Shown here: positions 6,201 to 63,960 of the stretch, one piece after another
Numbering within the stretch: position 1 is the first letter of the stretch
Layout of the letters: each line of letters starts with the position of its first letter
IMG/VR virus record: IMGVR_UViG_3300045988_148355
Span: 58,966 to 122,965 of that record
Direction: 5' to 3' (one strand)
DNA: 64,000 nt
Origin: a virus
The notes under the pieces: model-generated
What the model saw: only the letters and a program-made list of their open reading frames with translations
What the model was told of the DNA's origin: nothing
The model's database searches: none
Position numbers and translations under genes: made by a program

Positions 6201-9200
6201 TAATGAAACTTATTCTAAGCATCCAATAGAAGATTATCAGGAGTCTTTTGATAAATATGATTTATATGAAAATGCTGATGATTATAGAACTTCTATGAAA
6301 GGATATCCTGTTTTAGCATTTCATTGGCCTTCAACTAATGACAATGAATATAGTGAAAATGATATTATTTATATTGGAAAATATAATATGTTATTAGATA
6401 AGGGGTCTGATGAATGTTTTGGATTTAAACCTGATAAAAAGGTTTTATAGAATCAAATTAATGGAACTCCAAAAGTAAGAGATATTGCTGAATGTTGGGA
6501 ATTTTAGAATAATTCAAGAACATATTGTTCTTTCCGTGATCCTTGGAATAGATATAAATTATCTTTTAGACCTCCATTAATGGATGATAAAAATTCAACA
6601 GGTTACTTAACTTCTGGCGGAGCTCCAATAGTTGCTGACTCTTTCGAAGTTAGATATAACTCTAATGATGATTTAATCACAGACCAATTATTTAAGTGCA
6701 TTTCAGCGGAAGCTACCGACGCAGATAAGATAATTGAATTTACTGACGCAATAAATAATACAGTTCCCGATAGATTAAAATCAGAAACCATTATTGATAA
6801 TTCTACTGGCATTAAACATAAACAATGGACTATTACTAATCCAGGACAAAATCCTATCATCTTTGATATGAAGAATAGAAATACTTCTCGTGAATTACTT
6901 CTTGCATTAATGTCAAATTGGGAAGATGCCGTAAGTTGGGTTTGGAGTACTTGTTTAGATTGTAGCATTGATTTTGATGGAGTTTTATATGAAATTCCTT
7001 CAATGGGTCAATATGAGAAAATAGATTTAGCTGAAGCTAAGTATGAGCCAAATAAATATTATCTATTTGATAAAGTTGATGAAAATGGTAGCGAAACTTA
7101 TAAAATTGCCACTGAAGATTTTAATTTAGAAGAAAAATATTATATTTATAATAAAGACAGTAAAGTTTATAGTATAATTAAATTAACTGATGATGATAAT
7201 AAAGTTTATTAGATAAATAAATACTATATTTTATAGAATTAGGATAATAAAATTTATATCTTAGATTCTGAAAAATATAATCCTTATACAACTTATTATT
7301 CTTTTATTGAAGATGAGAGCCAAATTGATGATAGATGGTTATTACCTACACCGATAACTTATAACTCAATTACTTACCATAAAGATAGTAAGGAATATCG
7401 TCAAGCTAAATTTAAAAATGAGTTAAGCAATTATTTTAATATTGAATATTTAGCTACTTACTTTTTAATGACTGAAATTTTTGAATGTTATGACTCTCGT
7501 GGTAAAAATGCGATGTTTGCTTCTTGGGGTCCTCAAAAAGGAAATATTGAAAAAATCACTGGAATTCAACATTATATTTGGTATCCTATTTTTTATGATA
7601 TTGATACTCAATTAGGTATTAATAATACTGGTATTCCATCATTTGAATATTATGTTGATGCTACTGAAGATGGTAGTTATTCTACTAATGATAGTGTATT
7701 ATGGAATAATTTCTATACTTTCTTTAAGAGCAAAATTGTTGATAAATACAAGCAATTAATGGGTAAGCCAAATGGATCTTATGATTAGAGCCAAGTAAAA
7801 CAAATTTTTAAGAAAGAATCTGGAACTTCCTCTAAAAAAAGTGATGTTGTTGATAAATGGTATAAAACAGATCCTTCTTTATTCCCAGGTAGTTATGCTG
7901 TATAGGGAGAGCGTCCTATTATTGCTTTAAATTTAGATGAAGAATATAAATATATTATTCCAACTAATTCAGCGGCCAAGGATACTATTTTTGGTCGTAT
8001 TACTAATGGTGGTTAGTATGAAGTAGAAACTGATTAGTATTTTTATGCTTTATAGGGTGACCGCAATCTTTATCGTTCTCAATTTTTAACTAATCGTCTT
8101 AATTATATTGACTCTTGGTTAACCGTAGATGAATATTCTGGAGATAGTGGTAGTAATAATATTATAAGTCGTATTTCTGCTAACAATCCGAATACTACAT
8201 CTGATGAATGGATTGAAGGAACTAATAATTAGGGATTAACTAATTTAATACCAAATTCTCCTTATTGGAAAGATGGAGTTGAATTTGGCGCTAAAAATCA
8301 TATGTTCGATGGTGAATATTGGATTGAGATGGAACCAGCACGTCGTTCTTATGTTACTGTTGGAACAGACGGAGCAAATTTCCCATCTTAGAAATATGAT
8401 GGTTTAACTCCAGTTAGATTTACTGCCCCAGACTTAAAAAAAGGTATTATGTCAAGTGGTAATTATCGCGAACAATTATATTATATTTACGGACTAGAAC
8501 AAATGAAATCTCTTGGAGATTTAAGTAAATTATATTTCCAAGAATTATTCATTAGAGGTAAAGCTAATAAATTAGTAGATTTATTATTAGGATATGATGG
8601 TCTTTCCGAGCAAGGAAAAGAATATAAAAATAATGATGTAAATAATTGGAGTTATCCTAGTGAAGGTATGCCTCTATTAAAAGAAATGAATCTTTGTAAT
8701 ATTAAATTTTTAAATCCAGTAGCTTTAGATTTAACTAAAAGTGAAAAATTAGAAAACTTTAGAAATACCGGTTCTAATGTTACTAAAGTTTAGTTTGCTG
8801 AAGGAGTTGCTTTAAATACTTTATATTTAACTGATTATACAAATTACTTAAGTTTAATAGAAGCAAATCTTTTAACTAAATTAGTTACTAAATATGTATA
8901 TCCTACAGTTAATCCTATTACTAATCGTCTTGAGGTTGCAGAAGAAAATAAGGGGTTATATATTAAGAATCTAACGGATGTCGGAGATACCGCAATTACA
9001 ACAAGTATAAAAACTTTTGATATCCGTGGTGGTAATTTAGATTATTATTCTTATGAATTATTAAGACGTTATTATCTTGGGTGTGAAAAAAGTAATTTAA
9101 TGGGATGTGAAATTAATTTAACTAATGTCCAATGGAGTCCTTATAGACTGTTAAATGATGATAAAACAGAATTGAATAGTAATATTGAGTATTATAAAGA

Positions 9201-10944
9201 TAATGGACACTTCCAATTAGAAAAAATTAATATAGAAGATATAAGTAAAATTACTCCAAGTGAAATAAAGAATAATTTAATTTATTATTATGATAATAAT
9301 ATAAATGGATATAATGATATTCATAATAAAATTACTGATTATACTTTATTACGTAATTTATATAATAAAGCTCCGGTTTATTTCAAAGGTATTAATTAGA
9401 CTCATCCTAATATAACTGGTGTTATTTATATTGAAAATGCTCAAGAAATAGAAGAACATGTGATTCAAGAAGAACTGCAAAGTATTTATCCTAATTTAAT
9501 TATTTTTGTAAAAAATGTTAAAAAAGAATATTCTGCTAAATTTGTTCTTGAACAGGAAAATACGGATGGAGTACTAACTCAAGAAATTTTAAAAACTTAG
9601 AAATTACCTTTATCAAGCACTAAGTTTTTTGATAATCCTACGAATTCTTCAAATGAGACTTATATTTCTTTTGGCAGCTTGCAAGAAAAAATGCCTACTT
9701 ATGACTTTAAAGGTTGGGAAGATGATACTGGTGAATTAATAATTACAATTGGAAAAGATGTAAATGAAAAAGATATTGTTTTAAAAGATAATTGGGATTC
9801 TTTATCTTTGCGATCTGATAAAATAGATTATATTTTTAAAGCGAGATTTGAGCGTAAATCTTATACAATTACTTTTGTTAATGGCGATCGTGTTATTGAT
9901 GATTCAACTGTAAAGAAAGTATTTAATTATGGTGAAAGAATTACTGTTCCAGAAGAATTCTATTATTTTAATAATACAGAAGTATCTGATTTACCAAAAG
10001 GTGAAGACTCATTAGAATGGACTTGGAGATAGACGGGATGGGCAGATAAAGATGGAGTTAAAATTGATTTAACTAAACAATTAGCTTATTCCGACCGTGA
10101 ATTCTATGCTGTTGGAGAGCCGATTAGTGTTTATGATAATATTTTAACTAATGATTCTACTCATAAATATTATGATATTATAAATTCTGATGGAGAGTTA
10201 TCATTTGTAATGACTGACTTAGCTAAGAATTTAAAAGGCAAAGTTACTTTACCTACAACCTATAATGGCTAGCCAATTACAAGGATTAGATATACTTAGG
10301 TGAATCCCTCTGCAGCTGTTGGTATTCAAGTAAATCCTAATATTACAGCAATATTTTTTGCTCCAAAAGATAGTAATAAAGTTTCTGTAATAGATGATTA
10401 TGCTTTTATTTTAGATGAAGGATTAGAATATTTCCAATTTAGTAATTGTTTAAAGAAAATTGGTATTAAAGCATTTTATAGATGTCCTTTAAGTTATAAC
10501 AATATAATTCCTTATTCTTCTTCAACTGAAGGATTAAGTTTTGGATCTCAAGCATTTTATCAAAGTAAGATGGGATCTTATTCTCCTTATAATTTAATTA
10601 TAGAAGGATGTAAAGATGGTATTCTTAATTTTGATTTAAATGCATTTTCTGGTTAGACAATTTTAAATATGTCTGGTAATCAATTTAAAGGATATACAGG
10701 AGCTATTTAGATATAGATTGGTACAAATAAACATCCAATTAAACAAATTACTGTTGATAGTTCTGGTAATATTTTTACCCCTAGTCGTACTGGTATGCCT
10801 ACTATTGTTAATGGATATACTGGTCGTTTTAGATATTATTATGTTGGTAGCTATGGTGAAAATGTTAAAAATACTTTACACAATATTTATGAGGCAATGA
10901 TATCTAATAGAGCGAACTTTGAAGAAGAACCTATTGTAAAGTGA
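3244..10944 (+). CDS. giant structural protein (~2,566 codons; tail fiber, host-specificity or tail-associated protein) containing ~33 in-frame TAG codons; ATG 3244, stop TGA 10942
   Basis: Fourteen track ORFs (4069.., 4636.., 5278.., 5620.., 6007.., 6580.., 7468.., 8449.., 9100.., 9679.., 10300.. and others) all lie in frame 1 (start mod 3 = 1). They are separated only by TAG. The first TAA/TGA in this frame after 3244 is TGA 10942. RBS aaaggag at 3231-3237. Confidence 0.55.
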
Positions 10945-36261: not shown

Positions 36262-36386
36262 AATTTTTCTCCTTAATTTTAAATTAAATCATTTAATGAA
36301 ATATTATCTTTATTTAAATATGAAATTCTAATTAAAGGAATTCCATGTTCTTTACAATAATTATTTTTTAATTCATCACATTTTTG

Positions 36387-36983
36387 CTAATACATAATTT
36401 TTTCTTTAGTATTCCATCCTCCAATATAGTTTGTTGAATGTGTTTCTCCATCATATTCGATTAATTTTTTTACCATATTATCATCATCTAATATAGCAAA
36501 ATCAAATCTTAAATAACCATTTTTAGGAGATAATAAATCAGAAAAAACGTATTTTTTTTTATAACTAATATTATTTTTCTTAAGGATATTTTCTATAATG
36601 TACTCCCCTTGCGATTGTTTCAGGCAACCACAAGACATAGTAGTTTTTTGTTTTAAACTATTTGAAGATACTTCTGTAATTTTTCCACATTCACATTGGC
36701 ATTCCCAAATAATACCTCTTTCTTTAGTCCTTTTTCCGCTATCTTTTAAAACTGTTAATTTACCAAATTTCTAGCCCACTAAATTATTTGAAATTTTTTC
36801 TTTGCGTAAACACCCACAAGATTGAGTTAAACCAGAAACTAAGTTTGCTCTTTGTATACTTTTTATTGTACCACAAGAACATTGACAAATCCAATATTGT
36901 TGTTTGGATTTTCTTTCTGTATCTAATTTCAATACCGTTAATCTATTAAAAATTTGTCCTGTTAAATCTTTCATTAAATTCAT
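36387..36983 (-). CDS. putative homing endonuclease: tandem zinc-ribbon repeats (LTVL...WxCxCxCG...SCGC) plus a PD-(D/E)XK/DUF559-like domain (RFDFAI...IEYDGETH); one in-frame TAG
   Basis: Track ORFs 36771..36983 and 36387..36638 are in the same frame and joined via a TAG. The gap encodes a second copy of the zinc-ribbon motif. Confidence 0.5.
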
Positions 36984-42450: not shown

Positions 42451-42729
42451 TCAATCCTCATTACTTAAAGTATATCCACTTAGATTGTGCCCAAGAGAAC
42501 GAACAAAACAATCAAGTTCATCAATAAATACCATACTGCCTTTTGGATAATTTCCATTTATATAGTCATGATATGAAATAAAATTAATTCCAGAAATTCC
42601 GTATCCTTCTGACTTAATTCTCATAGCATTAGGATTAGAACAAGCAATAATAGCATTTTTCTCTTTAGCTAACAGTATTAATCTACTCGTTTTTCCTGTT
42701 CCACGTTTATCAATTATTCTATACATCAT
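42451..42729 (-). CDS. small P-loop NTPase-like protein
   Basis: Motif DKRGTGKTSRL. Confidence 0.3.
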   Translation of the reverse strand: MMYRIIDKRGTGKTSRLILLAKEKNAIIACSNPNAMRIKSEGYGISGINFISYHDYINGNYPKGSMVFIDELDCFVRSLGHNLSGYTLSNED

Positions 42730-43151
42730 TTTATACTATACCCGAATTCCTTAGCTTTAAAATAGTCTTGCCAATAATCTTCTCGCGCATCTAACTCTTC
42801 ACGAGAGCATTCTTCTATTACTTCAAAACTAAAATTTTCTACTCCAATAGCTAACATAGCAGGATAAAGTTTATTGCGAGTGGCGGGTTCTGCACCAATT
42901 CCGCGTTTAATATGTTGTTTCCAACGTGCAGAAAGATCAACTGCTTGACCCACATAACACATTTGATTTTCTAAATTAGTAATTTTATAAATTCCTGTGT
43001 GGATTCCAGAGCCAATTACTCGACCAATTAAATCTGTAGTTGGTTTTTCATAATAACTTTTCCAAATTACTTTATTTAAAATATCTTTATCACGAAGTTT
43101 CGGCTCAATAGAGCGAAGAAGACTGATTTCATCAATATCTATTTGAGGCAA
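42726..43151 (-). CDS. GIY-YIG nuclease domain protein (GIYKITNLENQMCYVGQA...RWKQH); in frame with the upstream coiled-coil ORF across TAG 43152
   Basis: GIY-YIG motifs. TTG start immediately after the TAG. Confidence 0.55.
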   Translation of the reverse strand: MPQIDIDEISLLRSIEPKLRDKDILNKVIWKSYYEKPTTDLIGRVIGSGIHTGIYKITNLENQMCYVGQAVDLSARWKQHIKRGIGAEPATRNKLYPAMLAIGVENFSFEVIEECSREELDAREDYWQDYFKAKEFGYSIK

Positions 43152-43739
43152 CTATAATTTATAGAAATCAGCTTGGTTTTTAATTTCTTCGGCACGTTTC
43201 GCAGCATCAACTGCGGCCGCGACTTCTCTACTATGTAATTGGATTTCTTCATCTAATTTATTTAATTCTTCTTTTTTAGAATCAATTAAATTAGATAATT
43301 CTAAAGAACAATCAACAAGAGTTGATTGATATTCATTTTCATATTCTTCTTTAGCTTTTGTATATTTAAATTCTTGTTTATTTAAATCATATTCAAGACG
43401 AACACGAGCATTTTCCATTGATTGCTGATAGAAAATATCCGCTGATTGCTTTGCTTGATTCTATAAAGAATTTAAACTATTTTCAACTTCGTCTCTTTTG
43501 GACTAAAGAATATTTAAATTATTTTCTACTTCTTCTTTTCTGGAAGTAATACTTTTTACTGCCGTTGATAATATTGTATACTAATCATCTAAATCTGAAT
43601 TTTTATATTCAAGTTCTTTATTTTGTTTTATTATTTCTTCATTAAGCTTTTGAATATTATTTAGTCGTGGACGTAAAATAAAATATATTAAAAATCCACC
43701 AATAATAAACGCCAGTATAGCAATTATTAAAGTAAGCAT
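43152..43739 (-). CDS. membrane-anchored coiled-coil protein (N-terminal TM helix MLTLIIAILAFIIGGFLIYFIL) ending at TAG 43152, in frame with the downstream GIY-YIG domain
   Basis: Track ORF 43152..43418 extends upstream through three TAGs to an ATG at ~43737. No TAA/TGA until the end of the GIY-YIG ORF. Confidence 0.4.
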
Positions 43740-44472: not shown

Positions 44473-45039
44473 TTAAATTAAATAAACTGATGATTGAGGA
44501 ACCAAATCTTCTAATTGTATTTTATCAATAACTGTATAAGGAATTCTGATAATTGGAATATTATTTATCTTACAATAATTATTCCTCATTTTATCTCGTT
44601 CTTTCGTTTTTAAAAAATTATCTCTATTGTTCCAGCCTGTTTTATCATATGAAAAATGCTATCTACCATCAAATTCAATAATATATTTATCATTAACATA
44701 TAAATCAAATTTAATTGGTTTTTTACTTTCTTCATAATAAAAATCATCAAAAGATTTCTCTGAAATATAAGAAATATTATTTTCTTCTAAAATCTTTTTT
44801 ATTTTTGTAATACCTTGAGAATCATGAGAACACAATCCACAACTTTTAGTATTTCCACTTTTAAGGCTAGATCCTCTAATATATTTTAAATTGCCACACT
44901 CACACTAACACAACCAAGTATAACATCCATGATTATCTAATGGGCCCACATCTAAAACAGTTAATTTATCAAAAACTTGATTCCTTAAATCTAATCTTAA
45001 TTTAGTCCCTAATTTTTGAGACTATTTTTTCTTTTCCAT
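44473..45039 (-). CDS. putative homing endonuclease (zinc-ribbon LTVL...WLCQCECG...SCG plus a PD-(D/E)XK/DUF559-like domain FDLYV...IEFDGRQH); three in-frame TAGs
   Basis: Paralog of 36387..36983. Missed by the ORF track because of the TAGs. Confidence 0.5.
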
Positions 45040-45089: not shown

Positions 45090-46304
45090 TTAGTTAAAAA
45101 TGTCCTTAATAGTACAATCTTTAGAATTTTTATCATCTCTAAAAGACTTAAAAAAGCCATGTCTTAAAGTATGCTCTTCATTATTACGTTGCATACATTG
45201 TATGGCAACTACTCGATTAAGGTATTTTTCAGGTTCTTTAGCAAAAGCTTCTTTAAGTTCATCAGTTAATCCAGAGGATACCGTTCCGATTTCAATAAGA
45301 TTTCCTTTATCATCATAGGCGCCTAACTTCATAGATGTCTTCCATCCATAATAATAGCCTTTGGTAACTGGCATATAGTATCTTTCATCATCGTTTATTA
45401 GTTGAGACCTACAATTTGTATTATTACAATTTTGAGTATACTTATAATAATAATTACCACTTAACAATTTAGGATTAATCCAACCAGCAAAACAATGGTC
45501 TTCTTCAAAGCAATCATAAAAACTTGGTTCTTTTACTTCCCAATACTGCCAGCTTTGAATTTCTTTACCATCATAATATTTAGTTGCCTCTTCAAATCCA
45601 ATACAAATACAATCAACATAGTCCATTTTTTTAATTTTAATAGAAGACCATGCCGGTCGCTTATCTGGAACATACGGAGCATCTTTTTTCTTTAAAACGG
45701 CGCCTTCTTCACCCGCAGTAAGAGCGGCCGCAGTAAATTCTTGAATATTATCAAGAACCGCATCCGCCAGTTCCATATAAGAATATTGGCTTAAATTAAA
45801 TTTATCCCAAATAGCTTTTAATACCTGATAACGTGTCCAAGCACCCTCATTTTGAATATTAATTCCATTATATTTAATAACATCATGTAAATAATAATGG
45901 ATTAATCCACTGGACTGCTGACGTTTAATCGCTTCAGGTGCTAAACATCCCATAATTTTAGTCACATCTTTAGAAGTTTTACCTGGATAATAAATTTCAC
46001 CTATTAAAATAGTGCCGGAAGGTAAATCTTTGAGTGCTTCATGAATATGAGGGACATTTGCTAACTTTTCAGTTAAAATACCAGTATTTGCACTTATATT
46101 ACGACTAAATAAATAATCATAATGTTCTGTCTTTTCATACTGATACCAATATCCATCTTTCTTTAATTCAGCAAAATATTCACCGCCATTACAAACAACG
46201 GGGAAAAGACTCTCTTTACCATCAGGCAATTTCCAAATCTTCATCGCTTGGATACAATCTGCTTCTGGAGCATACTTATCAAGCAATTCTTTAGAGAAAC
46301 TCAT
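45090..46304 (-). CDS. ATP-dependent DNA ligase (a nucleotidyltransferase-family RNA ligase cannot be fully excluded)
   Basis: Motif I AELKKDG. Motif IV EGAVLKKKD. Motif V WSSIKIKK. Confidence 0.65.
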   Translation of the reverse strand: MSFSKELLDKYAPEADCIQAMKIWKLPDGKESLFPVVCNGGEYFAELKKDGYWYQYEKTEHYDYLFSRNISANTGILTEKLANVPHIHEALKDLPSGTILIGEIYYPGKTSKDVTKIMGCLAPEAIKRQQSSGLIHYYLHDVIKYNGINIQNEGAWTRYQVLKAIWDKFNLSQYSYMELADAVLDNIQEFTAAALTAGEEGAVLKKKDAPYVPDKRPAWSSIKIKKMDYVDCICIGFEEATKYYDGKEIQSWQYWEVKEPSFYDCFEEDHCFAGWINPKLLSGNYYYKYTQNCNNTNCRSQLINDDERYYMPVTKGYYYGWKTSMKLGAYDDKGNLIEIGTVSSGLTDELKEAFAKEPEKYLNRVVAIQCMQRNNEEHTLRHGFFKSFRDDKNSKDCTIKDIFN

Positions 46305-48819: not shown

Positions 48820-49264
48820 CTGCTAATTCATTCCACAAATGGCCATCGTGCCCGGAAATTTTTCTTAAATCAATTTTAACTTCTTTTTCTGTTTCATAAT
48901 AATCTTTAATTAAATCAAGATTTTCTGGAGCTTTTTTATTAGATTTAATCCAATTATTACGTTCCCATCCATACATCCAATTAGTAAAAGTATTTACACA
49001 ATAGGCTGAATCACTATATACAGTAGGGATATCATTAGTCCATTCTCCATTGTCATGCTTGCCATATTTTTTCAATACATGAAGAATAGCTTTAATTTCT
49101 TCGCGGTTATTGGTAGTATCTTCAAAAGCGTTTATTTGACAAGCATCAATTACAACACCGTTTTCAGGATTGCTATCATATTCAATAACAACAAACCCAT
49201 AACCACCGCTATTATTTATTTGTCCGTTTTTACGACACGAACCGTCCGTATAAATTGCTATCAT
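48740..49264 (-). CDS. rnh: ribonuclease H
   Basis: Motifs IYTDGSC, YSDSAY and GHDGH..NELAD. The 3' end overlaps the annotated topo A start. Confidence 0.7.
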   Translation of the reverse strand: MIAIYTDGSCRKNGQINNSGGYGFVVIEYDSNPENGVVIDACQINAFEDTTNNREEIKAILHVLKKYGKHDNGEWTNDIPTVYSDSAYCVNTFTNWMYGWERNNWIKSNKKAPENLDLIKDYYETEKEVKIDLRKISGHDGHLWNELADGLATGKITAEEVLKKYGRDSKNSNS

Positions 49265-49362
49265 TATTTTTTATACCATATTTTATTAAATCCACTTAAA
49301 GAATAGATATTTTTATAATCATTATATACATCTAATCTTTTTTCTTTATTTTCTTTTCTTCG

Positions 49363-49950
49363 CTAAATTTCTATCCAAATTTCTTGTTGATTAGAACTAA
49401 TTTGACTTTTTCTAGCAAAACTTCTTACTTTAGATAAATATTCTTTTGATTTAACATATTCTATAGCTTCAGGACATATATCTATCCAACTGTCGCCCTT
49501 CCAAATATGTTTAAATCCTGATAAAGAAATTTTTTTACTATATAAAGGATAAACTTCAGACAACATTTTCCCCTAAAGTAATAAAGTTCTAATGTTTTGG
49601 ACTTCTTGTTCAGTTAAAGAAGAATTTGGATTTTTCTCTCCAGGTAAAGAAGGCCCTCCTTCTCCCCCTTTAGTTTCATTATAACCATTATTATAAGAAC
49701 CATAATATTCAATCCAATATTTCTCACGTTCAAATAATTTTTCTTTTGAAGTTAATTCAATTATTTCAAAAGAAAAATTATCAATTCCATATTTTCGGAA
49801 TGCTTTATGAATACTATAATTATACTAAGGATTTTTTTCTAATATTGATTCTGATTTATGAGAAATCCATCTACGTTCTATATTAACAGAACATCCTATA
49901 TAAATTTTTTTATTTATATTATTAGTTATTTTATAAATACCACAGCTCAT
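49363..49950 (-). CDS. GIY-YIG homing endonuclease with two in-frame TAGs
   Basis: N-terminus MSCGIYKITNNINKKIYIGCS...RRWISH. Track ORF 49363..49566 is its C-terminal DNA-binding part. Paralogous to 50785..51300. Confidence 0.6.
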
Positions 49951-49993: not shown

Positions 49994-50311
49994 TTAACAA
50001 AATTTGTCCGGGCAATCATGTGATGGCCTCCCTAAAAATTCATTTTCTCCACAATCAATATGAAAAGAAGTATTAGTAAAAATAGTAATTTTATCAATAA
50101 AATAATCGTTAATAATATTTACTTTATTATCTGGAAATAACTTTTGTAATTGCTCATGGAGGTCTCTACAAGTAATTATATCAATATCTTTATTAACATG
50201 AGCTAAAATAACGTCATCTTTACGAATAGGAATTATTTCAATAGGTGTTCCTTTATAATTACTTACATATCCCTTATCAGTTTTATACATCAATATTGGC
50301 CCTTTCTGCAT
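49994..50311 (-). CDS. hypothetical protein
   Basis: Track ORF. Confidence 0.25.
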   Translation of the reverse strand: MQKGPILMYKTDKGYVSNYKGTPIEIIPIRKDDVILAHVNKDIDIITCRDLHEQLQKLFPDNKVNIINDYFIDKITIFTNTSFHIDCGENEFLGRPSHDCPDKFC

Positions 50312-50495
50312 TTAATTCAATGAAAGATTTACGAGGGCCAACTGATTCACCCATTAAATCCATAAATGTTTTATTTACAAGATTCATATCATCCATTGTA
50401 ATCTGTTTTAAGGTGCGAGTTTCTGGATTCATAACCAATTCCATTTCATGAGTATCCATTTCACCTACATGTTTCTCCAATATTACTATTGGCAC
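50283..50495 (-). CDS. hypothetical protein (overlaps the previous ORF by 29 nt in a different frame)
   Basis: Track ORF. Confidence 0.25.
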   Translation of the reverse strand: MPIVILEKHVGEMDTHEMELVMNPETRTLKQITMDDMNLVNKTFMDLMGESVGPRKSFIELNAERANIDV

Positions 50496-50784
50496 TGACT
50501 ATTTCTTCGCTCCGGCTAACGTATTAACTGCCATCATCACGCCTACCTTTTTGAAAGTATGTATCAATAATACTTCCTACTCCCCGACAAAGGGGATAGT
50601 CGATACAGGATTAAACTACGATATTTTTCCAATTCTAATAACTCCATATATTTGTAAAAGAACCATATGTAAGTTTATTAGAATAATCTTTATAAACTTC
50701 TCTTATATTTTCTCCATTTTTACGACGTAATCTTATTTGATAAACATCTTGCTCAGTCATTTTAGAACGTCCATTTTTACTTCC

Positions 50785-51300
50785 CTAATTAGAAGTATTA
50801 TGTTTATGAAAATTTTTATTTTCAATACTATACACTTCTGGCATGATATTTTTCCAAGTATCACCATTCCAAATTTTATGGAAACCAGACTCACCAATTA
50901 AATTTTTATAATCTTCATAAACCTCATTTTTTCTTTCTTGATTATTATAGCGAGTTCTAATATCAATAACATCTTGCTTAGTTAACTTATGACTCGGATG
51001 GCTTTCTTCAGCATTAAATTGTCCTCCAGGAGTCATATTATACTAATCAGGATAAGTATTATAATACTTTATATAATACTATTCTTTATCATTAAGCTCT
51101 TCTATAGAACATTCTTCCAATATTTCAAAAGAAAAATTATCTATTCCATATTCTAATATGTCTTTATATAACTTTTTATTTTTTTCTCTATACCAGTTAT
51201 ATGATTTTTTATGTTCTCTAAAACGCTATTCTATTTGTGTGCTTTGTCCTATATAAGATAAGTTATTTATTTTATTGGTTATTTTGTAAATACCAATCAT
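50785..51300 (-). CDS. GIY-YIG homing endonuclease with three in-frame TAGs
   Basis: Reverse-strand translation reads MIGIYKITNKINNLSYIGQSTQIE-TAG-RFREH...DKE-TAG-YYIKYYNTYPD-TAG-YNMTPGG. The TAGs sit at positions occupied by polar residues in paralogs. Confidence 0.6.
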
Positions 51301-51451: not shown

Positions 51452-53266
51452 TTACCAATTCGCGACCCCGCCGATCAGCGGAAAAGTAGGTAAGGGCCAG
51501 ACTTTCTCGTACCCTTTCATACGTCCTAATTCAAAGTTTTTGCTTTTCATAGTTTTTCTGAATGTTTCAAGAGCGACGTCATCTTTAAGATATTTAATAT
51601 TTGTGCCCCAAGTCGCTTTATAAAGAGGTGGAACCGCAGCATAAATATAACCTTTTTCAATTAATTCAGGTGCAAATTTCCAAATAAATGTAAGAAATAG
51701 AATACGAATATGGCTACCATCAACATCAGCATCCGCTGTGATAATAATCTTACCATAACGTAATTTAGATTCGTCCACAATTACTTTACCATCTTTAACC
51801 TCAAGACCAAAAGCATCAATCATCGCACTAATTTCTTTATTTCCTAATGCTTTATGCAAATCTGTTTTTAAAGTATTAAGGATTTTACCTCTTACAGGCA
51901 AAACTGCTTGTGTATTACGGTTACGAGCTTCTTTAGTAGGGCCTTCCGCGGAACGGCCTTCAACAATAAAAATTTCACATTCGCTTCTATTTTTACTATT
52001 GGCATCACTTAGTGTGCCGGGTAGAATGGTTCTTTTCTTTGTATCAACTTTACGAACGGTTTCTTTAGCCTTTTTCGCTTTTTCGCGTGCCGCACGCGCC
52101 AGCATTGCCTTATCTACAATAGCTTTAGCATCTTTTGGATTATTGTCGAGCCAAACTTTTAAATCTTTTGAGACAAGACGTTGAACAATAGTTCTTGCTT
52201 CACTACTGGATAAAACATCTTTGGTTTGACCAGAGAAAACCGGATCAGGCATAATAAATGAAAGAACAAGACTTAATCCTTCTTTAAGTTCTTCACCAGT
52301 GATATTAGCATCTTTCTCTTTTAAAAGACCTTTATCACGAGCATATTCATTAATAGAAGTAGTAAGTGCTGTTCTAAAACCGGTTAGATGTGTTCCACCA
52401 CTATTAGGAATTGAATTAGTATAAAGTTTATAAGTATCGCTATAGGTATCATTATATTCCATAGCAATTTTTACACCAATTCTATCTTCAATATTTTCAG
52501 TATAAAAAATTGAAGTAAGAGAAGTTTTATTGCTATTTAAATCTTTAATATAATCAAGAATACCATTTTTTGAAGTAATCTCTTCTTCTGGCTTATCAAG
52601 ATAAGTAAAATGAAATACCATACCAGGAGAAAGATAAGCTAATTCTTGAATTTGTTTTCTTAAAGCATCATAATCAAGAAGAATACCTTCTTTAAAAATA
52701 CTTTCATCTGGCAAAAATTTAACCCAAGTTCCAGTCTCTTTACCAGTCCATTTTTCTTCTTGATAATCTTTTAATTTTCCTTTTTCAAAAGATGCAACTG
52801 CGTGTTTACCATCACGGAAAGACGCTACTTGAAAATAACGAGAAAGAGCGTTAGTGGCTTTAGCGCCAACGCCATTCATACCACCAGATGTATTATATCC
52901 AGTTTTTCCGTTGCTATCAAATTTTGCACCGGTATGTAGTTTTGTATAAATATTTACCAATGTTTCACTACCGTCTTTAGCTTTTCCAAAAGGAACACCA
53001 CGTCCATTGTCGCGGATTTCAACATAACCATCTTTAGATACTGAAATATCGCAACGAGTACAATGACCATTTAAATATTCATCAACCGCGTTTGAAATAA
53101 TTTCAAGAGTAATATGTTTAACTCCATCGGGTCCAGTAGAACCGATAAACATACCAGGTCTAAGACGAATTGCCTCCATCCCTTCTAAAGTTTTTATATC
53201 TTTAATACCATAATCATCTTTTCCTCTTTTGAGGATAATTTCTTGACTCAATCTAAATACCTCCAA
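51452..53266 (-). CDS. type II topoisomerase subunit B (GyrB/ParE/T4 gp39-like: GHKL ATPase plus TOPRIM)
   Basis: Motif EGRSAEG. ATP-lid segment GGMNGVGAKATN. Confidence 0.85.
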   Translation of the reverse strand: MEVFRLSQEIILKRGKDDYGIKDIKTLEGMEAIRLRPGMFIGSTGPDGVKHITLEIISNAVDEYLNGHCTRCDISVSKDGYVEIRDNGRGVPFGKAKDGSETLVNIYTKLHTGAKFDSNGKTGYNTSGGMNGVGAKATNALSRYFQVASFRDGKHAVASFEKGKLKDYQEEKWTGKETGTWVKFLPDESIFKEGILLDYDALRKQIQELAYLSPGMVFHFTYLDKPEEEITSKNGILDYIKDLNSNKTSLTSIFYTENIEDRIGVKIAMEYNDTYSDTYKLYTNSIPNSGGTHLTGFRTALTTSINEYARDKGLLKEKDANITGEELKEGLSLVLSFIMPDPVFSGQTKDVLSSSEARTIVQRLVSKDLKVWLDNNPKDAKAIVDKAMLARAAREKAKKAKETVRKVDTKKRTILPGTLSDANSKNRSECEIFIVEGRSAEGPTKEARNRNTQAVLPVRGKILNTLKTDLHKALGNKEISAMIDAFGLEVKDGKVIVDESKLRYGKIIITADADVDGSHIRILFLTFIWKFAPELIEKGYIYAAVPPLYKATWGTNIKYLKDDVALETFRKTMKSKNFELGRMKGYEKVWPLPTFPLIGGVANW

Positions 53267-53269
53267 ATA

Positions 53270-53997
53270 TAATTTTTATGGGTATTTCTTTTACCTCTAC
53301 AAACAGCGGATATAGTAGAAGAATTTCCTTCACAAAATTGTGCTGCTAATTGTAAACTATCGAATTCTTTTATAAGATTATTATTTTTATCAAATGCTCC
53401 TACTTTACGGCTTGTTTTTATTATTCTATTAGACTAAATTTGATTAGTCTTTTTTTCAGGTTCAATAATTTGATTTTCTTCATCTAAAAATCTAAATACT
53501 CTATTTCCTGTAGTTAGTCTAATCCCATTACATACGTTACTAATTTTAAATCTATCTAAATTAGTCTATTCTCCTGCGTCAGCCAATGAATTCCAAATAT
53601 TTAAAATATTTTTATTTTTATCAATTTCACAAACTTTTTTTCCATATTTTTTTCTTTTTGTATCACTCATTTTTGAAGCAATTTTAGGATCAAACATAGG
53701 ACTTTCTGTATTATCAGTCTAATTATAGCCTTTTGGAAAAATACAGTCTTCTTTAATAATATAATCATGCTCTATTTTAATCATATCTTCCCAATTTTTA
53801 GCATTACTAATAATTTCAAATGTAAAATTATTTATCCCGTATTCACGGAAATCTTGCATCAGTGGATAATTATAACGATGATCTTTCGGATTTTTAGAAG
53901 CTCCAATATGATGTCTCCAACGTCTATGCACATCAATCGAAGAACCAATATATATTTTGTTATTTATTTTATTAGTAATTTTATAAATTTGATACAT
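53270..53997 (-). CDS. GIY-YIG homing endonuclease with three or four in-frame TAGs; 3' end overlaps the topo B start
   Basis: Track ORF 53719..53997 (MYQIYKITNKINNKIYIGSS...RRWRHH) continues through TAGs to a TGA at ~53270. Confidence 0.55.
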
Positions 53998-58935: not shown

Positions 58936-59073
58936 AGTAGTAGAACTCCTTTCTATCTATTTCTATAAATATATTAACATAAAAATTATTAAAAGGCAAG
59001 TTTTAGGATTTTTGTTAAAAAAATTTCTATGGGTGTGAGTAATTGGAACTACGGCCGATCGCGTTAATCAGGG

Positions 59074-60503: not shown

Positions 60504-60805
60504 AAATAATTCTCCTTATTTATTTAATTTTAAATTTTATACTTATATTTGAATAATGCTTCAATAGCATCATCAATCGAATTATAGTATCCATTGTGTT
60601 CAAATTCTCCATCTTCATCCCATAAGAAAGAGATTTCTACACCTAATGGACCTTGTTCCAATTTTTCTTTTACTTCTTTGTAAATTGCTTCTTCCATTTA
60701 TCTTGTTATTAATTTTTCCCAATCTTCATAGGACCATTTTTCCAGTAATGAGTTTTTTTGTTAAATCATTACCTTTATAATCATAAAGTGCCATTTAGTT
60801 TTTCC

Positions 60806-61366
60806 TCATTCATCAAGGAATGATTTACATTCCTCAACTTTGGCTTTCATAGCATCAATGATTACATCAAGATTAATGGGATATCCATGGTGAGAATCAA
60901 CACCTACATGATACATATAAGGTCGATCTTCAAAGAAATTAGTAGTTTGATGAGTATGACCGTAAAGATTCAAAGTCATTTGATGAAGATTTTCTCTTTC
61001 AAGATTACCAGTCATACAAGGGAAATGGGTCATAAAGAAATGGTATTTACGATAATTTAGCATAATTGCCCAGTCCATTTCAACAACATTAGGCAAATCC
61101 GCGTAAAGCTTCTGCCGAGTCGTTGTATCATGATTGCCAAATACAATATGGAATTTACCCTTAAGACGTTTAACATATTCAATATTAGAAGGGTCTCCAA
61201 GCATTAGATCACCAAGAATATAAACGTCATCTTCATCAGAAATGATGCTATTCCATTTCTCGATGTAATCTTCATTCATTTCTTTAATTGAAGAATAACC
61301 ACGAGCTTTCCAAATAAATTCTCGATCATGTCCAAAGTGCATATCACTGGTTAAAAAGATTGCCAT
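60806..61366 (-). CDS. calcineurin-like metallophosphoesterase
   Basis: Motifs SDMHFGH, GDL and GNHD. Confidence 0.65.
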   Translation of the reverse strand: MAIFLTSDMHFGHDREFIWKARGYSSIKEMNEDYIEKWNSIISDEDDVYILGDLMLGDPSNIEYVKRLKGKFHIVFGNHDTTTRQKLYADLPNVVEMDWAIMLNYRKYHFFMTHFPCMTGNLERENLHQMTLNLYGHTHQTTNFFEDRPYMYHVGVDSHHGYPINLDVIIDAMKAKVEECKSFLDE

Positions 61367-61870
61367 GTATGAATCACTTCTCCTTTTTCGTTAACCTCTT
61401 GGATAAGGTTATATTTAATATATTCTTTAAAAGTGGGAGGAGTAAAAGAATTTGCCATACTCCGAATCACTTCTTCTGGAACCTGTGCTCGACCATCACG
61501 CTGTTTATTGCGCTCAATACAAACTTCAACAGGAACATTAAAATAAATAACATTCACGTTAAGATTTGTATATCCTTTTGCGTTAATTGCTTTGAGAAGT
61601 TTCTTGCGGGAGCCGGGTCCAAGATGCGTGGCATCCGCATATACATCATCATAGTCTCTTAAAGAAAGAGTAATTGCTTCAACAAAAGCATGCCATACAC
61701 TTTCCTCTTTGGCAAAATAACTTTCATCATCATTTAACATTTGAAAACGAATTGCATCACGAGAAACAATACAACCACATTGAGGCCAACGGTTTTTAAG
61801 CCAAGTGGATTTACCCGAGCCGAGACTAAGGAATACCAGACATAATCCAAAGATTCTTTCTAGTATTCAT
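61351..61870 (-). pseudogene. polynucleotide-kinase-like P-loop kinase, interrupted at Walker A by a 7-nt TAG-containing insert (needs a +1 frameshift or is inactivated)
   Basis: Frame A reads MNTRKNLWIMSGIP-TAG-SRLG-TAA. Frame B reads LSLGSGKSTWLK...FQ and joins track ORF 61351..61740. Deleting tagtctc would restore GIPGSGKST. Confidence 0.45.
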
Positions 61871-62352
61871 TTAATCATCCCCTTTCTTTTCTTTGCTATG
61901 AATTTCTCTATGACAATTAGCACATACTAATTGACATTTATCTAATTCTTTTTTAATAACTTGCCAATCTAAAATTAAATTTCTATCACTTAAATTAAAA
62001 TCTTTTTCTTGAGGATCTAAGTGATGAAAATCAAGTACTTCAGAACATTTATTATATCCGCAAATCTCACATTTATTTCCTTTATATTCTAAGGCCCATT
62101 TTTTTATTAATGCTCTTTGTCCTGCTCCAGATTTCGGCACTAATGGAACACATTCATAACAATATCTTCTATTATAAGCATTTTCTTTTGCTATAAATTT
62201 TTTTCCACATTTAGCACAAATTTTTTCAGAAATATTTATGCCTTGACTTCGACGCAATCTTGAAGCTTTCGCCTAACAAGATTGAGAACAATATTTAGTG
62301 TCTCTACGGGATCCCTCAAACTCTTTACCACAATGCTAACAAACTAATTTCA
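61871..62352 (-). CDS. HNH endonuclease with N-terminal zinc ribbons; two in-frame TAGs in the N-terminal extension
   Basis: C-terminal HNH region DFHHLDP...NL..LCANCH. The track ORF extends upstream through TAGs to an ATG at ~62350. Confidence 0.55.
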
Positions 62353-62409
62353 TATAATAATCTCCTTTATATTGAATTATTATATTTAAAATTTATTTAA
62401 TAATGATTG

Positions 62410-62676
62410 TTAGGTTTTGCCAAAAGAGGTATTCCGGACATAATCCAAAGATTCTTTTGCTTCATCTTTATACACCCCATTCTCAAAATTTTCTTTAAAC
62501 TCTTCCACTTCTTCTGGAGTTCTACATTCGATATGATTTACTTCTTCTTTGCAATAAATACAATACAACTTTTTACGATGAAATTTACCATGCTGAAGAC
62601 TTACTCGACGAGATAAAGGAATTCCTTTTCGTCCACAATTCATACAGTAAAAATCATGGTTTTCATAAGAGGCCAT
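62410..62676 (-). CDS. zinc-ribbon hypothetical protein
   Basis: Track ORF with CxxC...CxxC. Confidence 0.3.
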   Translation of the reverse strand: MASYENHDFYCMNCGRKGIPLSRRVSLQHGKFHRKKLYCIYCKEEVNHIECRTPEEVEEFKENFENGVYKDEAKESLDYVRNTSFGKT

Positions 62677-62681
62677 TTATA

Positions 62682-62888
62682 TCACTCCTTTAAATTTGAA
62701 CGAGAAGGAATTGCAATATTAATAAAAATCTTAATGACAAACATCTGCCAATAAGTAATGCTTGGAAAGCAAAACCAAGGAATAAGAGCAGTATTCCAAA
62801 TAAGTAGCATGATAGCTACTTCAATGAACATAAAAGCTATACCCGCAAGTGCCATAGAAATATCATCATAATCGTTCATTTTTATCAA
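62682..62888 (-). CDS. small membrane protein
   Basis: Track ORF, hydrophobic. Confidence 0.3.
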   Translation of the reverse strand: MIKMNDYDDISMALAGIAFMFIEVAIMLLIWNTALIPWFCFPSITYWQMFVIKIFINIAIPSRSNLKE

Positions 62889-62950
62889 TTCCTTTCTTAA
62901 CCTTATATATATATTATATATTATTTTTTATAAAAAATCAATAAAGATCT

Positions 62951-63229
62951 TTATACTTCCTTTAAATGATTTTCACATTCTTCAGCATCATATTCAACAG
63001 TTAAATTTGTAGCATCAAGATAACCACCATCATAGTAAAGTATATCGTGTTTAACAGTAGCATTTTTATAAATTTCTTCCTCGTTAGTATCTTTTACAAT
63101 TTTAAAAAGATCACATAAAAATCTACAAGCAGATTCAATAGTGTCAAATTTAAGAGCTTTATCATCCCAACAGAGTGGATTAACACCCTCTTTTGTTTCA
63201 TAAATATGATATTTCATACCTCTAACCAT
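62951..63229 (-). CDS. hypothetical protein
   Basis: Track ORF. Confidence 0.3.
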   Translation of the reverse strand: MVRGMKYHIYETKEGVNPLCWDDKALKFDTIESACRFLCDLFKIVKDTNEEEIYKNATVKHDILYYDGGYLDATNLTVEYDAEECENHLKEV

Positions 63230-63240
63230 TATTTTTCTCC

Positions 63241-63960
63241 TTACATAGTAAATTCAATAGTCTCGAACGTATCAAGGTCAATAAGACAAGTTTTTCCAGT
63301 AGCAAAAGAACCATTATCAATATCGCATTTATGTCCATCGCAATACCAAAAATGATTCATATTTTCCAAATCAAAATCTTTATAACTTTTGCCTACTGCG
63401 ATATAAGGATCATAATTAGGCATCAGCAGAAAAGGCGTATGGCCATGAATACAGAAAGTGCGGTCTGCGGATGAATCTTCGGGCCACGGATCATAAAAAT
63501 GATCTCGACTCCAAATTAAATTATAAGAATTAGGGCTATCGCCAAGAGTATAACCGGCATGAGAAAGAAGAATAATTTGATTATCCTTATTCACATAGGT
63601 TTCTTGCAGAGGAAGTTTAGCAAGTTCACGATACCATCCAGGATTAGCATGTTCTCCAATTTGCCAATCTTCAAATGTTTTTGCTCCACTATTATTACAA
63701 AGAAGAGCATATGCTCGACTAAAATTTTCATCTTTAAGATAATCTTTCATAGCTTCAAATAACATATCTTCATGATTACCTTTAAGATAAATAACTCTTT
63801 TGTCCGCAAGAGCATTTTTAATAATTTCCCAACCATCATTTCCGCGGTCTGCGCAATCACCCAGACAATAAAGAGTATCAGTCGGATCAAGATATTTCAT
63901 AATTTGATCCCAAAGGGGCTTCATACCATGAATATCACTAACCGCATATGTTTTATTCAT
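63241..63960 (-). CDS. Ser/Thr protein phosphatase (lambda-PPase-like metallophosphatase)
   Basis: Motifs DIHG, GDCADRG and GNHE. Confidence 0.7.
   Translation of the reverse strand: MNKTYAVSDIHGMKPLWDQIMKYLDPTDTLYCLGDCADRGNDGWEIIKNALADKRVIYLKGNHEDMLFEAMKDYLKDENFSRAYALLCNNSGAKTFEDWQIGEHANPGWYRELAKLPLQETYVNKDNQIILLSHAGYTLGDSPNSYNLIWSRDHFYDPWPEDSSADRTFCIHGHTPFLLMPNYDPYIAVGKSYKDFDLENMNHFWYCDGHKCDIDNGSFATGKTCLIDLDTFETIEFTM

Follow-up and report, generated by a model that had tools for sequence, protein, structure and literature searches.

To our knowledge, programmed translational bypassing is represented in nature by very few cases, essentially gene 60 of phage T4 with its homologues and the inserts of yeast mitochondria. 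A stop codon in the A site is also known to stimulate +1 shifts, as in prfB (CUU-UGA) and antizyme (UCC-UGA). As recounted in a 2022 preprint (Manning & Atkins 2022, citing Bonocora et al. 2011), the T4 topoisomerase gene combines an HNH-family homing endonuclease, MobA, with a bypassed insert of 50 nucleotides (nt), and the insert is presented there as shown to protect its carrier from MobA (Manning & Atkins 2022); in the 2022 survey the gene 60 cassette was called 'unique'. Pairing on the exit side of the ribosome has been proposed to pull the mRNA in gene 60 bypassing (PMC5009743). In the stop-hops of Escherichia coli, which are synthetic and of low efficiency, the stop is flanked by matched codons and a single amino acid takes up 9 nt; shorter-distance counterparts of bypassing have 'long been presumed', according to a 2016 recoding review in which no natural in-frame stop-hop was known (PMC5009743). 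In addition, tRNA-Pro slips on CC[C/U]-[C/U], and tRNA-Pro(UGG) shifts by +2 on CCC-CG in vitro (PMC4519876). Here we describe a phage polynucleotide kinase gene that is interrupted, within the sequence for its Walker A motif (P-loop), by a cassette carrying an HNH endonuclease gene and ending in a 7-nt gap that begins with UAG. The gene is located on a 64,000-nt stretch of viral DNA (IMG/VR record IMGVR_UViG_3300045988_148355, positions 58,966 to 122,965), the whole of which is referred to as the window. On balance we consider it probable, from the sequence comparisons below, that ribosomes hop over the 7-nt gap from CCU to CUC and thereby yield the native kinase. The literature searched contained no description of this HNH/kinase cassette.

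The locus resembles gene 60/MobA in a number of respects. In both systems, a homing endonuclease of the HNH family interrupts a phage enzyme gene at a conserved catalytic motif, the naive relatives are uninterrupted, and the cassette brings new terminal coding sequence and a short non-coding insert a few tens of nt 3' of the endonuclease gene. The take-off codon is immediately followed by a stop codon, UAG or sometimes UGA, or by a hungry codon, a stem-loop is present or predicted upstream, and the insertions look recent and form series of decay. The two systems differ in that the target here is the Walker A motif of a Pnkp-type kinase, the gap measures 2-11 nt and not 50 nt, take-off would involve the tRNA for Pro in place of that for Gly or Asp, and landing would often be near-cognate whereas the gene 60 family uses matched codons. 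Furthermore, the kinase gap lacks an internal Shine-Dalgarno (SD) sequence, a take-off stem-loop within the gap and a long (KKYK) nascent-peptide signal, the kinase is not split into two proteins, and the cassette is carried by TAG-recoded gut phages, probably of Firmicutes.

Interruption of the kinase gene

All genes between 60.5 and 64 kb of the window are on the minus strand. The leader of the kinase open reading frame (ORF) opens with ATG at 61870-61868, encodes MNTRKNLWIMSGIP and ends with the Pro codon CCT at 61831-61829, directly followed by TAG (61828-61826). The kinase body is in the +1 frame with respect to this leader, where it reads SLGSGKSTWL... and remains open for 156 codons up to the stop at 61353-61351; no ATG, GTG or TTG start was found in this frame upstream of the P-loop in the window. 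Past the gap, the body (61351..61821; GSGKST..., 156 codons and the stop) begins at GGC 61821 and reads GSGKSTWLKNRW..., and deletion of the gap TAGTCTC (61822..61828), consisting of TAG, T and the putative landing triplet CTC, restores IMSGIPGSGKST. The Walker A motif GxxxxGK[ST] of the kinase would be complete only when the gap is skipped. For gapped kinase genes of this type, gene callers gave fragments of 129-164 amino acids.

The kinase matched Pfam AAA_33 at 2.8e-19 (70 bits, cut-off 27) and PHROG 'polynucleotide kinase' at 3.7e-21, and its top matches in PDB were the kinase domain of Clostridium thermocellum Pnkp (4gp7/4jst, 2.5e-9) and T4 Pnk (2.6e-4). The matches to the bacterial Pnkp and PSTK models of NCBIfam are at the domain level only, with scores far under the equivalog cut-offs. 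The motifs SRD (S34, R35, D36) and DATH (D77-A78-T79-H80) are invariant in ten lineages. By its sequence, the kinase of the window is a polynucleotide kinase domain of the Pnkp/T4 Pnk type.

Three other routes into the kinase frame were considered and rejected. Reading of TAG as Gln does not rescue the frame because frame 0 stops at TAA four codons later. Termination followed by reinitiation would give no functional kinase since the next in-frame start is located beyond the P-loop. An alternative start in the kinase frame is acquired only by a deleted allele (L112, see below).

Mobile HNH cassette

A search of IMG/VR with the repaired kinase gave 14 loci, 11 without the HNH gene and three with it in the same arrangement as in the window. 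The 11 HNH-less relatives (L001-L011) have an intact kinase start, ATGAAGCAAAAGAATCTTTGGATTATGTCCGGAATACCAGGCTCGGGTAAA (MKQKNLWIMSGIPGSGK), and carry uninterrupted MKQKNLWIMSGIPGSGKST, the sequence from the start through the P-loop being ATG..GGAATACCAGGCTCGGGTAAA; the kinase start in these relatives overlaps, in another frame, the 3' end of an upstream Zn-ribbon gene. In the window, the original kinase 5' end is left as a remnant (ATGAAGCAAAAGAATCTTTGGATTATGTCCGGAATACC, 62428..62465) whose only present role is to form the 3' end of the Zn-ribbon gene (62410..62676; 88 amino acids; PHROG 1257; from the ORF list). The remnant is collinear with L001-L011 up to GGAATACC and then diverges, and the cassette is inserted directly after ...GGAATACC (62428), which places its left junction between 62428 and 62427.

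Compared with the naive allele, the window contains 606 additional nt (62427-61822). These include the HNH homing-endonuclease gene (HEG) of 160 codons (61871..62353; PHROG 2255 'HNH endonuclease', 7.6e-30) and, 3' of its stop codon, a second and slightly altered copy of the kinase 5' end (61829..61870, recognized by comparison with the native copy), which is composed of ATG and 13 replacement codons with the take-off CCT as the last and is followed by the gap TAG-T-CTC. A new SD sequence, GGGGA, stands just 5' of the replacement start within the 3' end of the HNH gene. The replacement differs from the native 5' end by three synonymous changes and by new codons 2-4. By this comparison, a 606-nt mobile cassette sits in the Walker A coding sequence (G-I-P|G-S-G-K-S-T), and the window represents the HEG-plus allele of a phage Pnkp-type kinase gene. 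The junction CCTTAGTCT was found in eight contigs, the window and seven from IMG/VR, ENA and JGI assemblies, and the 7-nt gap is invariant among them except for CTC/CTT. The same arrangement of HNH gene, duplicated 5' end and gap was present in the four metagenome contigs among them.

An initial annotation of this region, made from the letters alone, had recognized a kinase similar to polynucleotide kinases that would read IMSGIP-GSGKST if 7 nt were absent, and had named resequencing and the state of the orthologues as checks. The kinase assignment agrees with the AAA_33, PHROG and PDB matches, the reading was confirmed by removing TAGTCTC, and the intact GSGKST of the HNH-less orthologues identifies the 7 nt as an insertion, which all the independent assemblies retain. 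The annotation had also considered a dead gene, with all orthologues interrupted and nothing conserved downstream; intact orthologues exist, however, and the downstream ORF is conserved. The HNH gene, then listed as a neighbour, does adjoin the kinase gene, but is in fact the cause of the interruption, as its cassette brings the 7 nt and replaces the kinase 5' end.

Between two of the loci, L018 and L019, the HNH genes show no difference in 478 nt whereas the kinases show 38 differences in 471 nt (8%), and the HEG-plus and HEG-minus kinase alleles interleave. The presence of identical HNH genes in diverged kinase backgrounds and the interleaving of alleles altogether indicate that the HNH cassette is mobile. 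In L021, the 3' end and gap are the same but the HNH is a different one (68% identity). An intact kinase body is retained by the eight contigs of the lineage of the window (lineage A) and by representatives of all ten gapped lineages. The ratio of nonsynonymous to synonymous substitution rates (dN/dS) of the kinase is 0.10 in HEG-plus and HEG-minus alleles alike, but is no proof of function because the cassette homes into fresh alleles, as the identity of HNH genes across diverged backgrounds shows.

The HEG-plus allele looks like a minority, since the HNH cluster (P0121) has 82 members against 792 of the native kinase cluster (P0001). Scanning of IMG/VR with a degenerate DNA pattern gave only the known contigs and three chance matches in an unrelated ORF. 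None of the HNH homologues from Lak, crAss-like and jumbo phages and from 19 IMG/VR loci adjoined a kinase gene. No close relative was found among GenBank phages, where the distant relatives are annotated as polynucleotide kinase, and the kinase of Phass-1 ('code 15 clade') is intact. In GTDB, relatives of the kinase were found mainly in metagenome-assembled genomes of Firmicutes, none of them with the HNH gene, and this distribution hints that the host of the window phage is probably a member of Firmicutes.

Gaps in related lineages

Homologues of the HNH protein are abundant in a large protein collection, and all of those fetched from it with DNA context are located directly upstream of an AAA_33 kinase gene. 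In most of the HNH-carrying lineages, a metallophosphoesterase gene follows the kinase gene. A total of 12 further lineages with HNH before the kinase were recognized, three ungapped (C, G, and I) and nine gapped. In C, G, and I, the HNH gene and the replacement 5' end are joined in frame to the kinase with no gap. The gap occupies the identical position in the ten gapped lineages, after the Pro codon that ends G-x-P and before the codon with which GSGK begins. Lineage B includes both an intact naive allele (L104) and the gapped allele L106, and lineage E has the gap without the upstream duplicate exon.

The gaps are given here as the take-off codon, then the A-site codon, spacer and landing triplet, and then the codon at which decoding would resume; the net displacement includes the landing triplet. 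The gap of the window (A; CCU / UAG U CUC / GGC) measures 7 nt, as do those of D (L136; CCU / UGA A CCA / GGU), E (L138; CCU / UAG U UCU / GCC), and H (L143; CCU / UGA U UCA / GGA). Gaps of 6 nt, in frame, are present in F (L141; CCU / UAA CUU / GGC) and J (L145; CCG / UAA CUA / GGC), those of 8 nt in K (L153; CCU / UGA CG CCA / GGA) and L (L155; CCU / UGA UG CCA / GGA), and one of 11 nt in B (L106; CCG / UAG UUAAA CUG / GGA). The shortest is that of M (L154; CCC / CG / GGA), in which the frame-0 codon is CGG and a move of 2 nt would land on the overlapping CCG; this gap (L154 ~1690-1730; GGC UUA CCC CG GGA) is represented by a single contig only. All three frame relations are thereby present, frame 0 in F and J, +1 in A, D, E, and H, and +2 in B, K, L, and M. 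A stop codon stands right after the Pro codon in nine of the ten gapped lineages (three times UAG, four times UGA, twice UAA), and in the tenth, M, the A site would hold the rare codon CGG. The landing triplets are all YYN, CUC or CUU in the lineage of the window, and in four lineages they are cognate Pro codons (CCA or CCG); pairing of YYN triplets with the tRNA-Pro anticodon NGG is therefore possible using G.U pairs.

Conservation of the leader and the length of the P-loop

The leaders of the cassettes always keep an SD sequence, ATG and an open frame that encodes a hydrophobic strand and, after it, G-[IVL]-P. For the Gly of the leader, GGU, GGC, and GGA are used across lineages, and the leaders of B, F, and K all encode LYIMVGIP; between B and F, the last eight leader codons differ by five synonymous and no non-synonymous changes. 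The leader appears to be inherited together with the endonuclease and not refreshed from recipients, since cassette-specific sequence flanks it on both sides. Conservation of the leader as the first half of a Walker A motif would make sense only if it is joined to GSGK[ST]. The ungapped HEG-plus lineages C, G, and I give direct evidence of selection to retain the kinase once the cassette has invaded.

Among the representatives of 120 homologue clusters, 118 have the canonical 8-residue GxxxxGK[ST] and none has a longer Walker A motif; of the other two, one is a gapped allele that was mis-called and one a fragment. GIPGSGKS is encoded by 92 of the 120. If the gaps were translated, SL, EP, SS, DS, xL, or VKL would be inserted, and a kinase with such residues in its P-loop is unlikely to be active, as no length variant of Walker A exists among the 120 representatives.

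Predicted hairpin at the gap

An RNA hairpin is predicted at 61824..61876 on the minus strand (-21.4 kcal/mol, z = -2.8). Its inner stem of 10 bp pairs 61868-61859 (GAAUACUAGA) with 61840-61831 (UCUGGUAUUC), the 3' arm ending on the first C of the take-off Pro codon, and its outer helix of 6 bp pairs 61876-61871 with 61829-61824 (GAUUAA/UUAGUC) and spans the UAG. The 5' arm is formed by the novel leader codons 2-4, and the changes from the native sequence to the leader, TCC to TCT, GGA to GGT, and ATA to ATT, are exactly those that perfect the stem of the window. The tetranucleotide ACUA (61864-61861, minus strand) is among the few leader strings common to A and B (L106); it is complementary to UAGU, the stop and the next base (61828-61825), and an alternative pairing with the gap could form.

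Each of the nine gapped lineages with a stop is predicted to form a hairpin that abuts the Pro codon, and the five controls (three ungapped and two native alleles) are not. The predicted helix links the region of the start codon to a stretch of 6-12 nt that directly precedes the Pro codon. Counting the last 8 nt up to and including the first base of this codon, 6-8 are paired in the nine stop-gapped lineages and 0-1 in the five controls. The helix sequences differ among lineages, with one compensatory change, U(-1).A39 in B against A(-1).U in F and K. The per-lineage shuffle tests are modest, as given below, and the lineages are related, so the hairpin evidence is suggestive and not proof.

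Proposed bypass and rival explanations

From these observations the following course of events is proposed. The HNH enzyme would cut the conserved intact P-loop coding sequence of naive phages (target ...TCCGGAATACCAGGCTCGGGTAAA...), and the cassette would be copied into the cut kinase gene by repair. The gap would then split the two halves of the target and protect the carrier, by analogy with the 50-nt insert of gene 60 against MobA. During translation of the kinase mRNA, peptidyl-tRNA-Pro on CCU in the P site would face UAG in the A site, and slow termination would stall the ribosome; the tRNA would release CCU, and the mRNA would slide forward by 7 nt. The mRNA would probably be pulled by refolding of the hairpin, in which the 10 nt directly preceding the P-site codon form the 3' arm: when the Pro codon is in the P site, this arm lies within the ribosome and the 5' arm beyond it. 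The tRNA would pair again on CUC with a G.U pair at the middle position, and decoding would restart at GGC to give the native IMSGIPGSGKST kinase. In an alternative form of the last step, pairing on CUU (+1) would lead into the same frame and add Ser-Leu to the P-loop (junction IMSGIPSLGSGK).

Short bypassing of this kind, or stop-hopping, fits all of the gapped lineages, whereas +1 frameshifting alone fails because all three frames occur among the homologous gaps. A little less surely than for the hop in the window itself, we lean to the view that the gaps represent a natural family of programmed stop-hops of 2-11 nt, with take-off of tRNA-Pro, driving by a hairpin and landing on cognate or G.U-near-cognate triplets, and that they serve as immunity spacers against the HNH enzyme. 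With the stop-hops already described the gaps would share frame-independent re-pairing of the P-site tRNA; F (CCU UAA CUU) and J (CCG UAA CUA) have their exact layout, and the window has one nt more. The known stop-hops are, however, engineered or adventitious, while in the kinase genes the layout is naturally conserved, goes with a mobile element and comes together with a hairpin that is itself conserved.

A number of points weigh against this proposal. In six lineages, that of the window among them, landing would be only near-cognate (CUN or UCN, with a G.U pair in the first or second position). The gap of the window also permits a plain +1 slip, CCU-U belonging to the class CC[C/U]-[C/U], and all four lineages with 7-nt gaps use CCU. 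At take-off the nascent chain would be just 14 residues long, unlike that of gene 60, and the UAG suppressor tRNA of a TAG-recoded phage would compete late in infection; we speculate that such competition could account for the UGA or UAA of other lineages. Homing into fresh alleles means that intact kinase bodies and the dN/dS of 0.10 do not prove function after invasion. The allele L112 (Logan SRR17531978, 2240-4500) is decayed: its HNH gene is truncated at the 5' end, a 12-nt deletion removes the leader ATG together with the 5' arm of the hairpin and creates an ATG in the kinase frame (MIERIFGLCLVFLSFGSGKST), and its kinase has two in-frame deletions of four codons. As for the hairpin, the shuffle tests gave 25-140 of 500 per lineage (p about 0.05-0.28), the lineages share ancestry, and the ungapped lineage C has a small hairpin at the start codon, so that the structure may partly serve the control of initiation.

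Among the rival explanations, a kinase that is dead in HEG-plus phages appears unlikely, though less so than the others. The cassette would in this case spread selfishly, the gap would only shield the DNA of the carrier, and the kinase body would be intact through recent invasion. The recent horizontal spread, with identical HNH genes in diverged backgrounds, agrees with this, as do the lack of information in dN/dS under homing, the decay of L112 and the apparent minority of HEG-plus alleles (82 against 792), and the polynucleotide kinase genes of T4 are conditionally dispensable. A dead kinase, however, leaves unexplained why the leader keeps its SD sequence, ATG and open frame with strand-G-x-P under synonymous changes only, why a stop stands exactly after the Pro codon in nine lineages, why a YYN triplet (four times CCN) stands exactly before the Gly codon, and why a gap-specific hairpin with a compensatory change is predicted, all of them features that persist across HNH lineages of only 55-75% identity; in addition, selection for the kinase after invasion is evident from the ungapped HEG-plus lineages. 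Decay of the kind expected of a pseudogene was seen in L112 alone, but recent homing weakens this test. Somewhat more doubtful still is a programmed +1 frameshift, in which tRNA-Pro slips from CCU to CUU over UAG and the product is IMSGIP-SL-GSGKST. The site in the window has what such a shift requires, a stop in the A site and a shift-prone P-site codon able to pair again, and CCU-U falls within the documented slippery class (PMC4519876); moreover, all four lineages with 7-nt gaps have CCU and the +1 frame, and the CTC/CTT variation of lineage A is synonymous in that frame. In prfB, antizyme and tRNA-Pro slippage, too, a shift-prone P-site tRNA faces a slow A-site codon, CCU-UAG of the window fits the +1 motif of tRNA-Pro, and CCC-CGG of lineage M fits its documented +2 shift. 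The slip onto CUU is mechanistically possible for the window and the other 7-nt lineages; it could not serve F, J, K, L, B, and M, which need frame 0 (UAA CUU, UAA CUA) or +2, and at gaps of 6, 8, and 11 nt a +1 slip would be unproductive or run into a stop. The residues it would insert (SL, EP, SS, DS) are not conserved, a longer Walker A motif is found in 0 of the 120 cluster representatives, and no SD-like stimulator was seen by eye 5' of CCU in the window. Compared with these known shifts, the kinase site has no SD stimulator and the related cassettes need moves of 0, +2, or more, and its apparent purpose would be to tolerate an immunity insert instead of autoregulation. The recoding at CCU-UAG put forward in the initial annotation accordingly stands in part: recoding best explains the retention of the gene, while a +1 shift as in prfB and antizyme is not general, since the other gaps measure 2, 6, 8, and 11 nt.

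Two further explanations are of far lower probability than the short bypass. That the HNH gene is held by a self-splicing intron, with the 5' site after ...ATACCT and the 3' site before GGCTCGGG, is very improbable. Phage homing endonucleases are frequent in group I introns within conserved motifs, and, as in group I 5' exons, the last base of the upstream remnant is U. Against this, no Rfam match was obtained for 60700-63000 at E <= 10 or for the whole window at the gathering score, and the flanks, only ~74 nt of AT-rich spacer with an ordinary SD sequence 5' of the HNH ORF and 45 nt 3' of it, are too short for a ribozyme core; on these grounds a group I intron was rejected. The last base of the putative intron would also be C and not G, and lineage E has the gap without an upstream duplicate exon. 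An error of sequencing or assembly as the origin of the 7-nt insertion is hardly credible at all, because the junction CCTTAGTCT is invariant in eight independent contigs, which derive from at least five samples and three assembly sources, and natural variation surrounds it.

Neighbouring genes

The kinase gene is followed by that of a metallophosphoesterase of 186 amino acids (60806..61366; PF12850, 9.8e-12; PHROG 547, 2.8e-41), which overlaps the kinase stop by 16 nt and has its SD sequence 14 nt upstream. It is likely the partner of the kinase in healing of 2',3'- or 3'-phosphate ends, and the pair of genes is kept in all related lineages with downstream sequence except E and M. The order of kinase and calcineurin-type phosphoesterase is the same as in bacterial Pnkp, but in the window the two are separate, overlapping genes. 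Should translation of the phosphoesterase be coupled to that of the kinase, phosphoesterase expression in HEG-plus phages would likewise hinge on recoding. A gene for a metallophosphatase similar to NinI and the lambda-type Ser/Thr phosphatase (63241..63960; PHROG 246, 4e-26; PF00149) is located upstream, and a similar gene is present upstream in several of the related lineages.

The initial annotation had gathered these genes into an RNA-repair cluster and compared them, together with a ligase at 45090, with the kinase/ligase healing set of T4. The overlapping metallophosphoesterase and the upstream positions of the phosphatase (63241-63960) and the HNH gene (61871-62353) are as it described, whereas the phosphatase has proximity in its favour and no functional link to the kinase beyond that. 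The ligase (45090-46304, beside gyrase genes) is an ATP-dependent DNA ligase (PF01068, PF04679) and not an RNA ligase. As it was the only ligase examined in the window and no RNA ligase was found there, the window, a part of a genome of roughly 190 kb, shows a kinase and a metallophosphoesterase and not a set of the T4 type. RNA ligase genes (PF09414, PF21189) do occur ~1 kb upstream of the HNH-kinase-phosphoesterase group, but in J and L only (L145/L146 1-391; L155 1-329), and support a role of the module in RNA repair, which the window alone does not show.

TAG recoding and other mobile nucleases in the window

The window phage is TAG-recoded (code-15-like), with 30% GC. The ORF at 3244-10944 (plus strand; 2566 amino acids) has 33 in-frame TAG codons, and reading TAG as sense lengthens the longest ORF from 1338 to 2568 codons, while most replication genes on the minus strand have few or no in-frame TAG codons. 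No tRNA gene was found in the window. Two in-frame TAG codons are present in the HNH gene (62338-62336 and 62275-62273, minus strand), one inside a CxxC motif and the other aligned with the Gln codon CAA of lineage B, an alignment that supports TAG as Gln in this phage. It may be speculated that the HNH endonuclease is made only once the suppressor tRNA is active.

The window genome is heavily colonised by homing endonucleases. At least four GIY-YIG-like ORFs, recognized by eye from the motif GIYKITN..., are located on the minus strand among gyrase and replication genes (49264-49950, 50611-51300, 53248-53997, and the C-terminal part of 42726-43739), and L112 carries an inserted GIY-YIG gene that separates the kinase from the phosphoesterase. 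A gyrB-like gene (51452-53179, minus strand, 575 amino acids) is apparently split, breaking inside KGLGEM (...RMKGYEKVW...), and its missing C-terminus (...GEMDTHEMELVMNPETRTLK...NAERANIDV) is encoded at 50283-50666, beyond the GIY-YIG ORF at 50611-51300; no Rfam match to an intron was obtained at this split gene. Two paralogous ORFs on the minus strand (36279-36983 and 44473-45039) have Cys-rich N-terminal repeats (YWICQCSCGT, TWLCQCECGN) that resemble the N-terminal domain of the alternative HNH of L021 (IYWICECDCGCGT), and they may be further mobile nucleases with a common DNA-binding module.

Significance

If the kinase is dead, the locus remains a clear case in which an RNA-repair gene has been sacrificed by an endonuclease. 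If the proposed bypass is true, the in-frame gaps would be the first natural in-frame stop-hops. The lineages would provide ten natural variants of a minimal bypass site, with differing stop codons, gaps of 2-11 nt, cognate or wobble landing and a co-varying hairpin, together with three ungapped controls, a ready mutational series on how ribosomes let go and land. Gene callers will overlook or truncate such genes, and the stop-codon-recoded gut phages may conceal further recoding. The cassette would be a second, independent partnership of a homing endonuclease and bypassing after T4 gene 60, and the pairing of an endonuclease with a recoding insert would then be a repeatable evolutionary solution and not a one-off.

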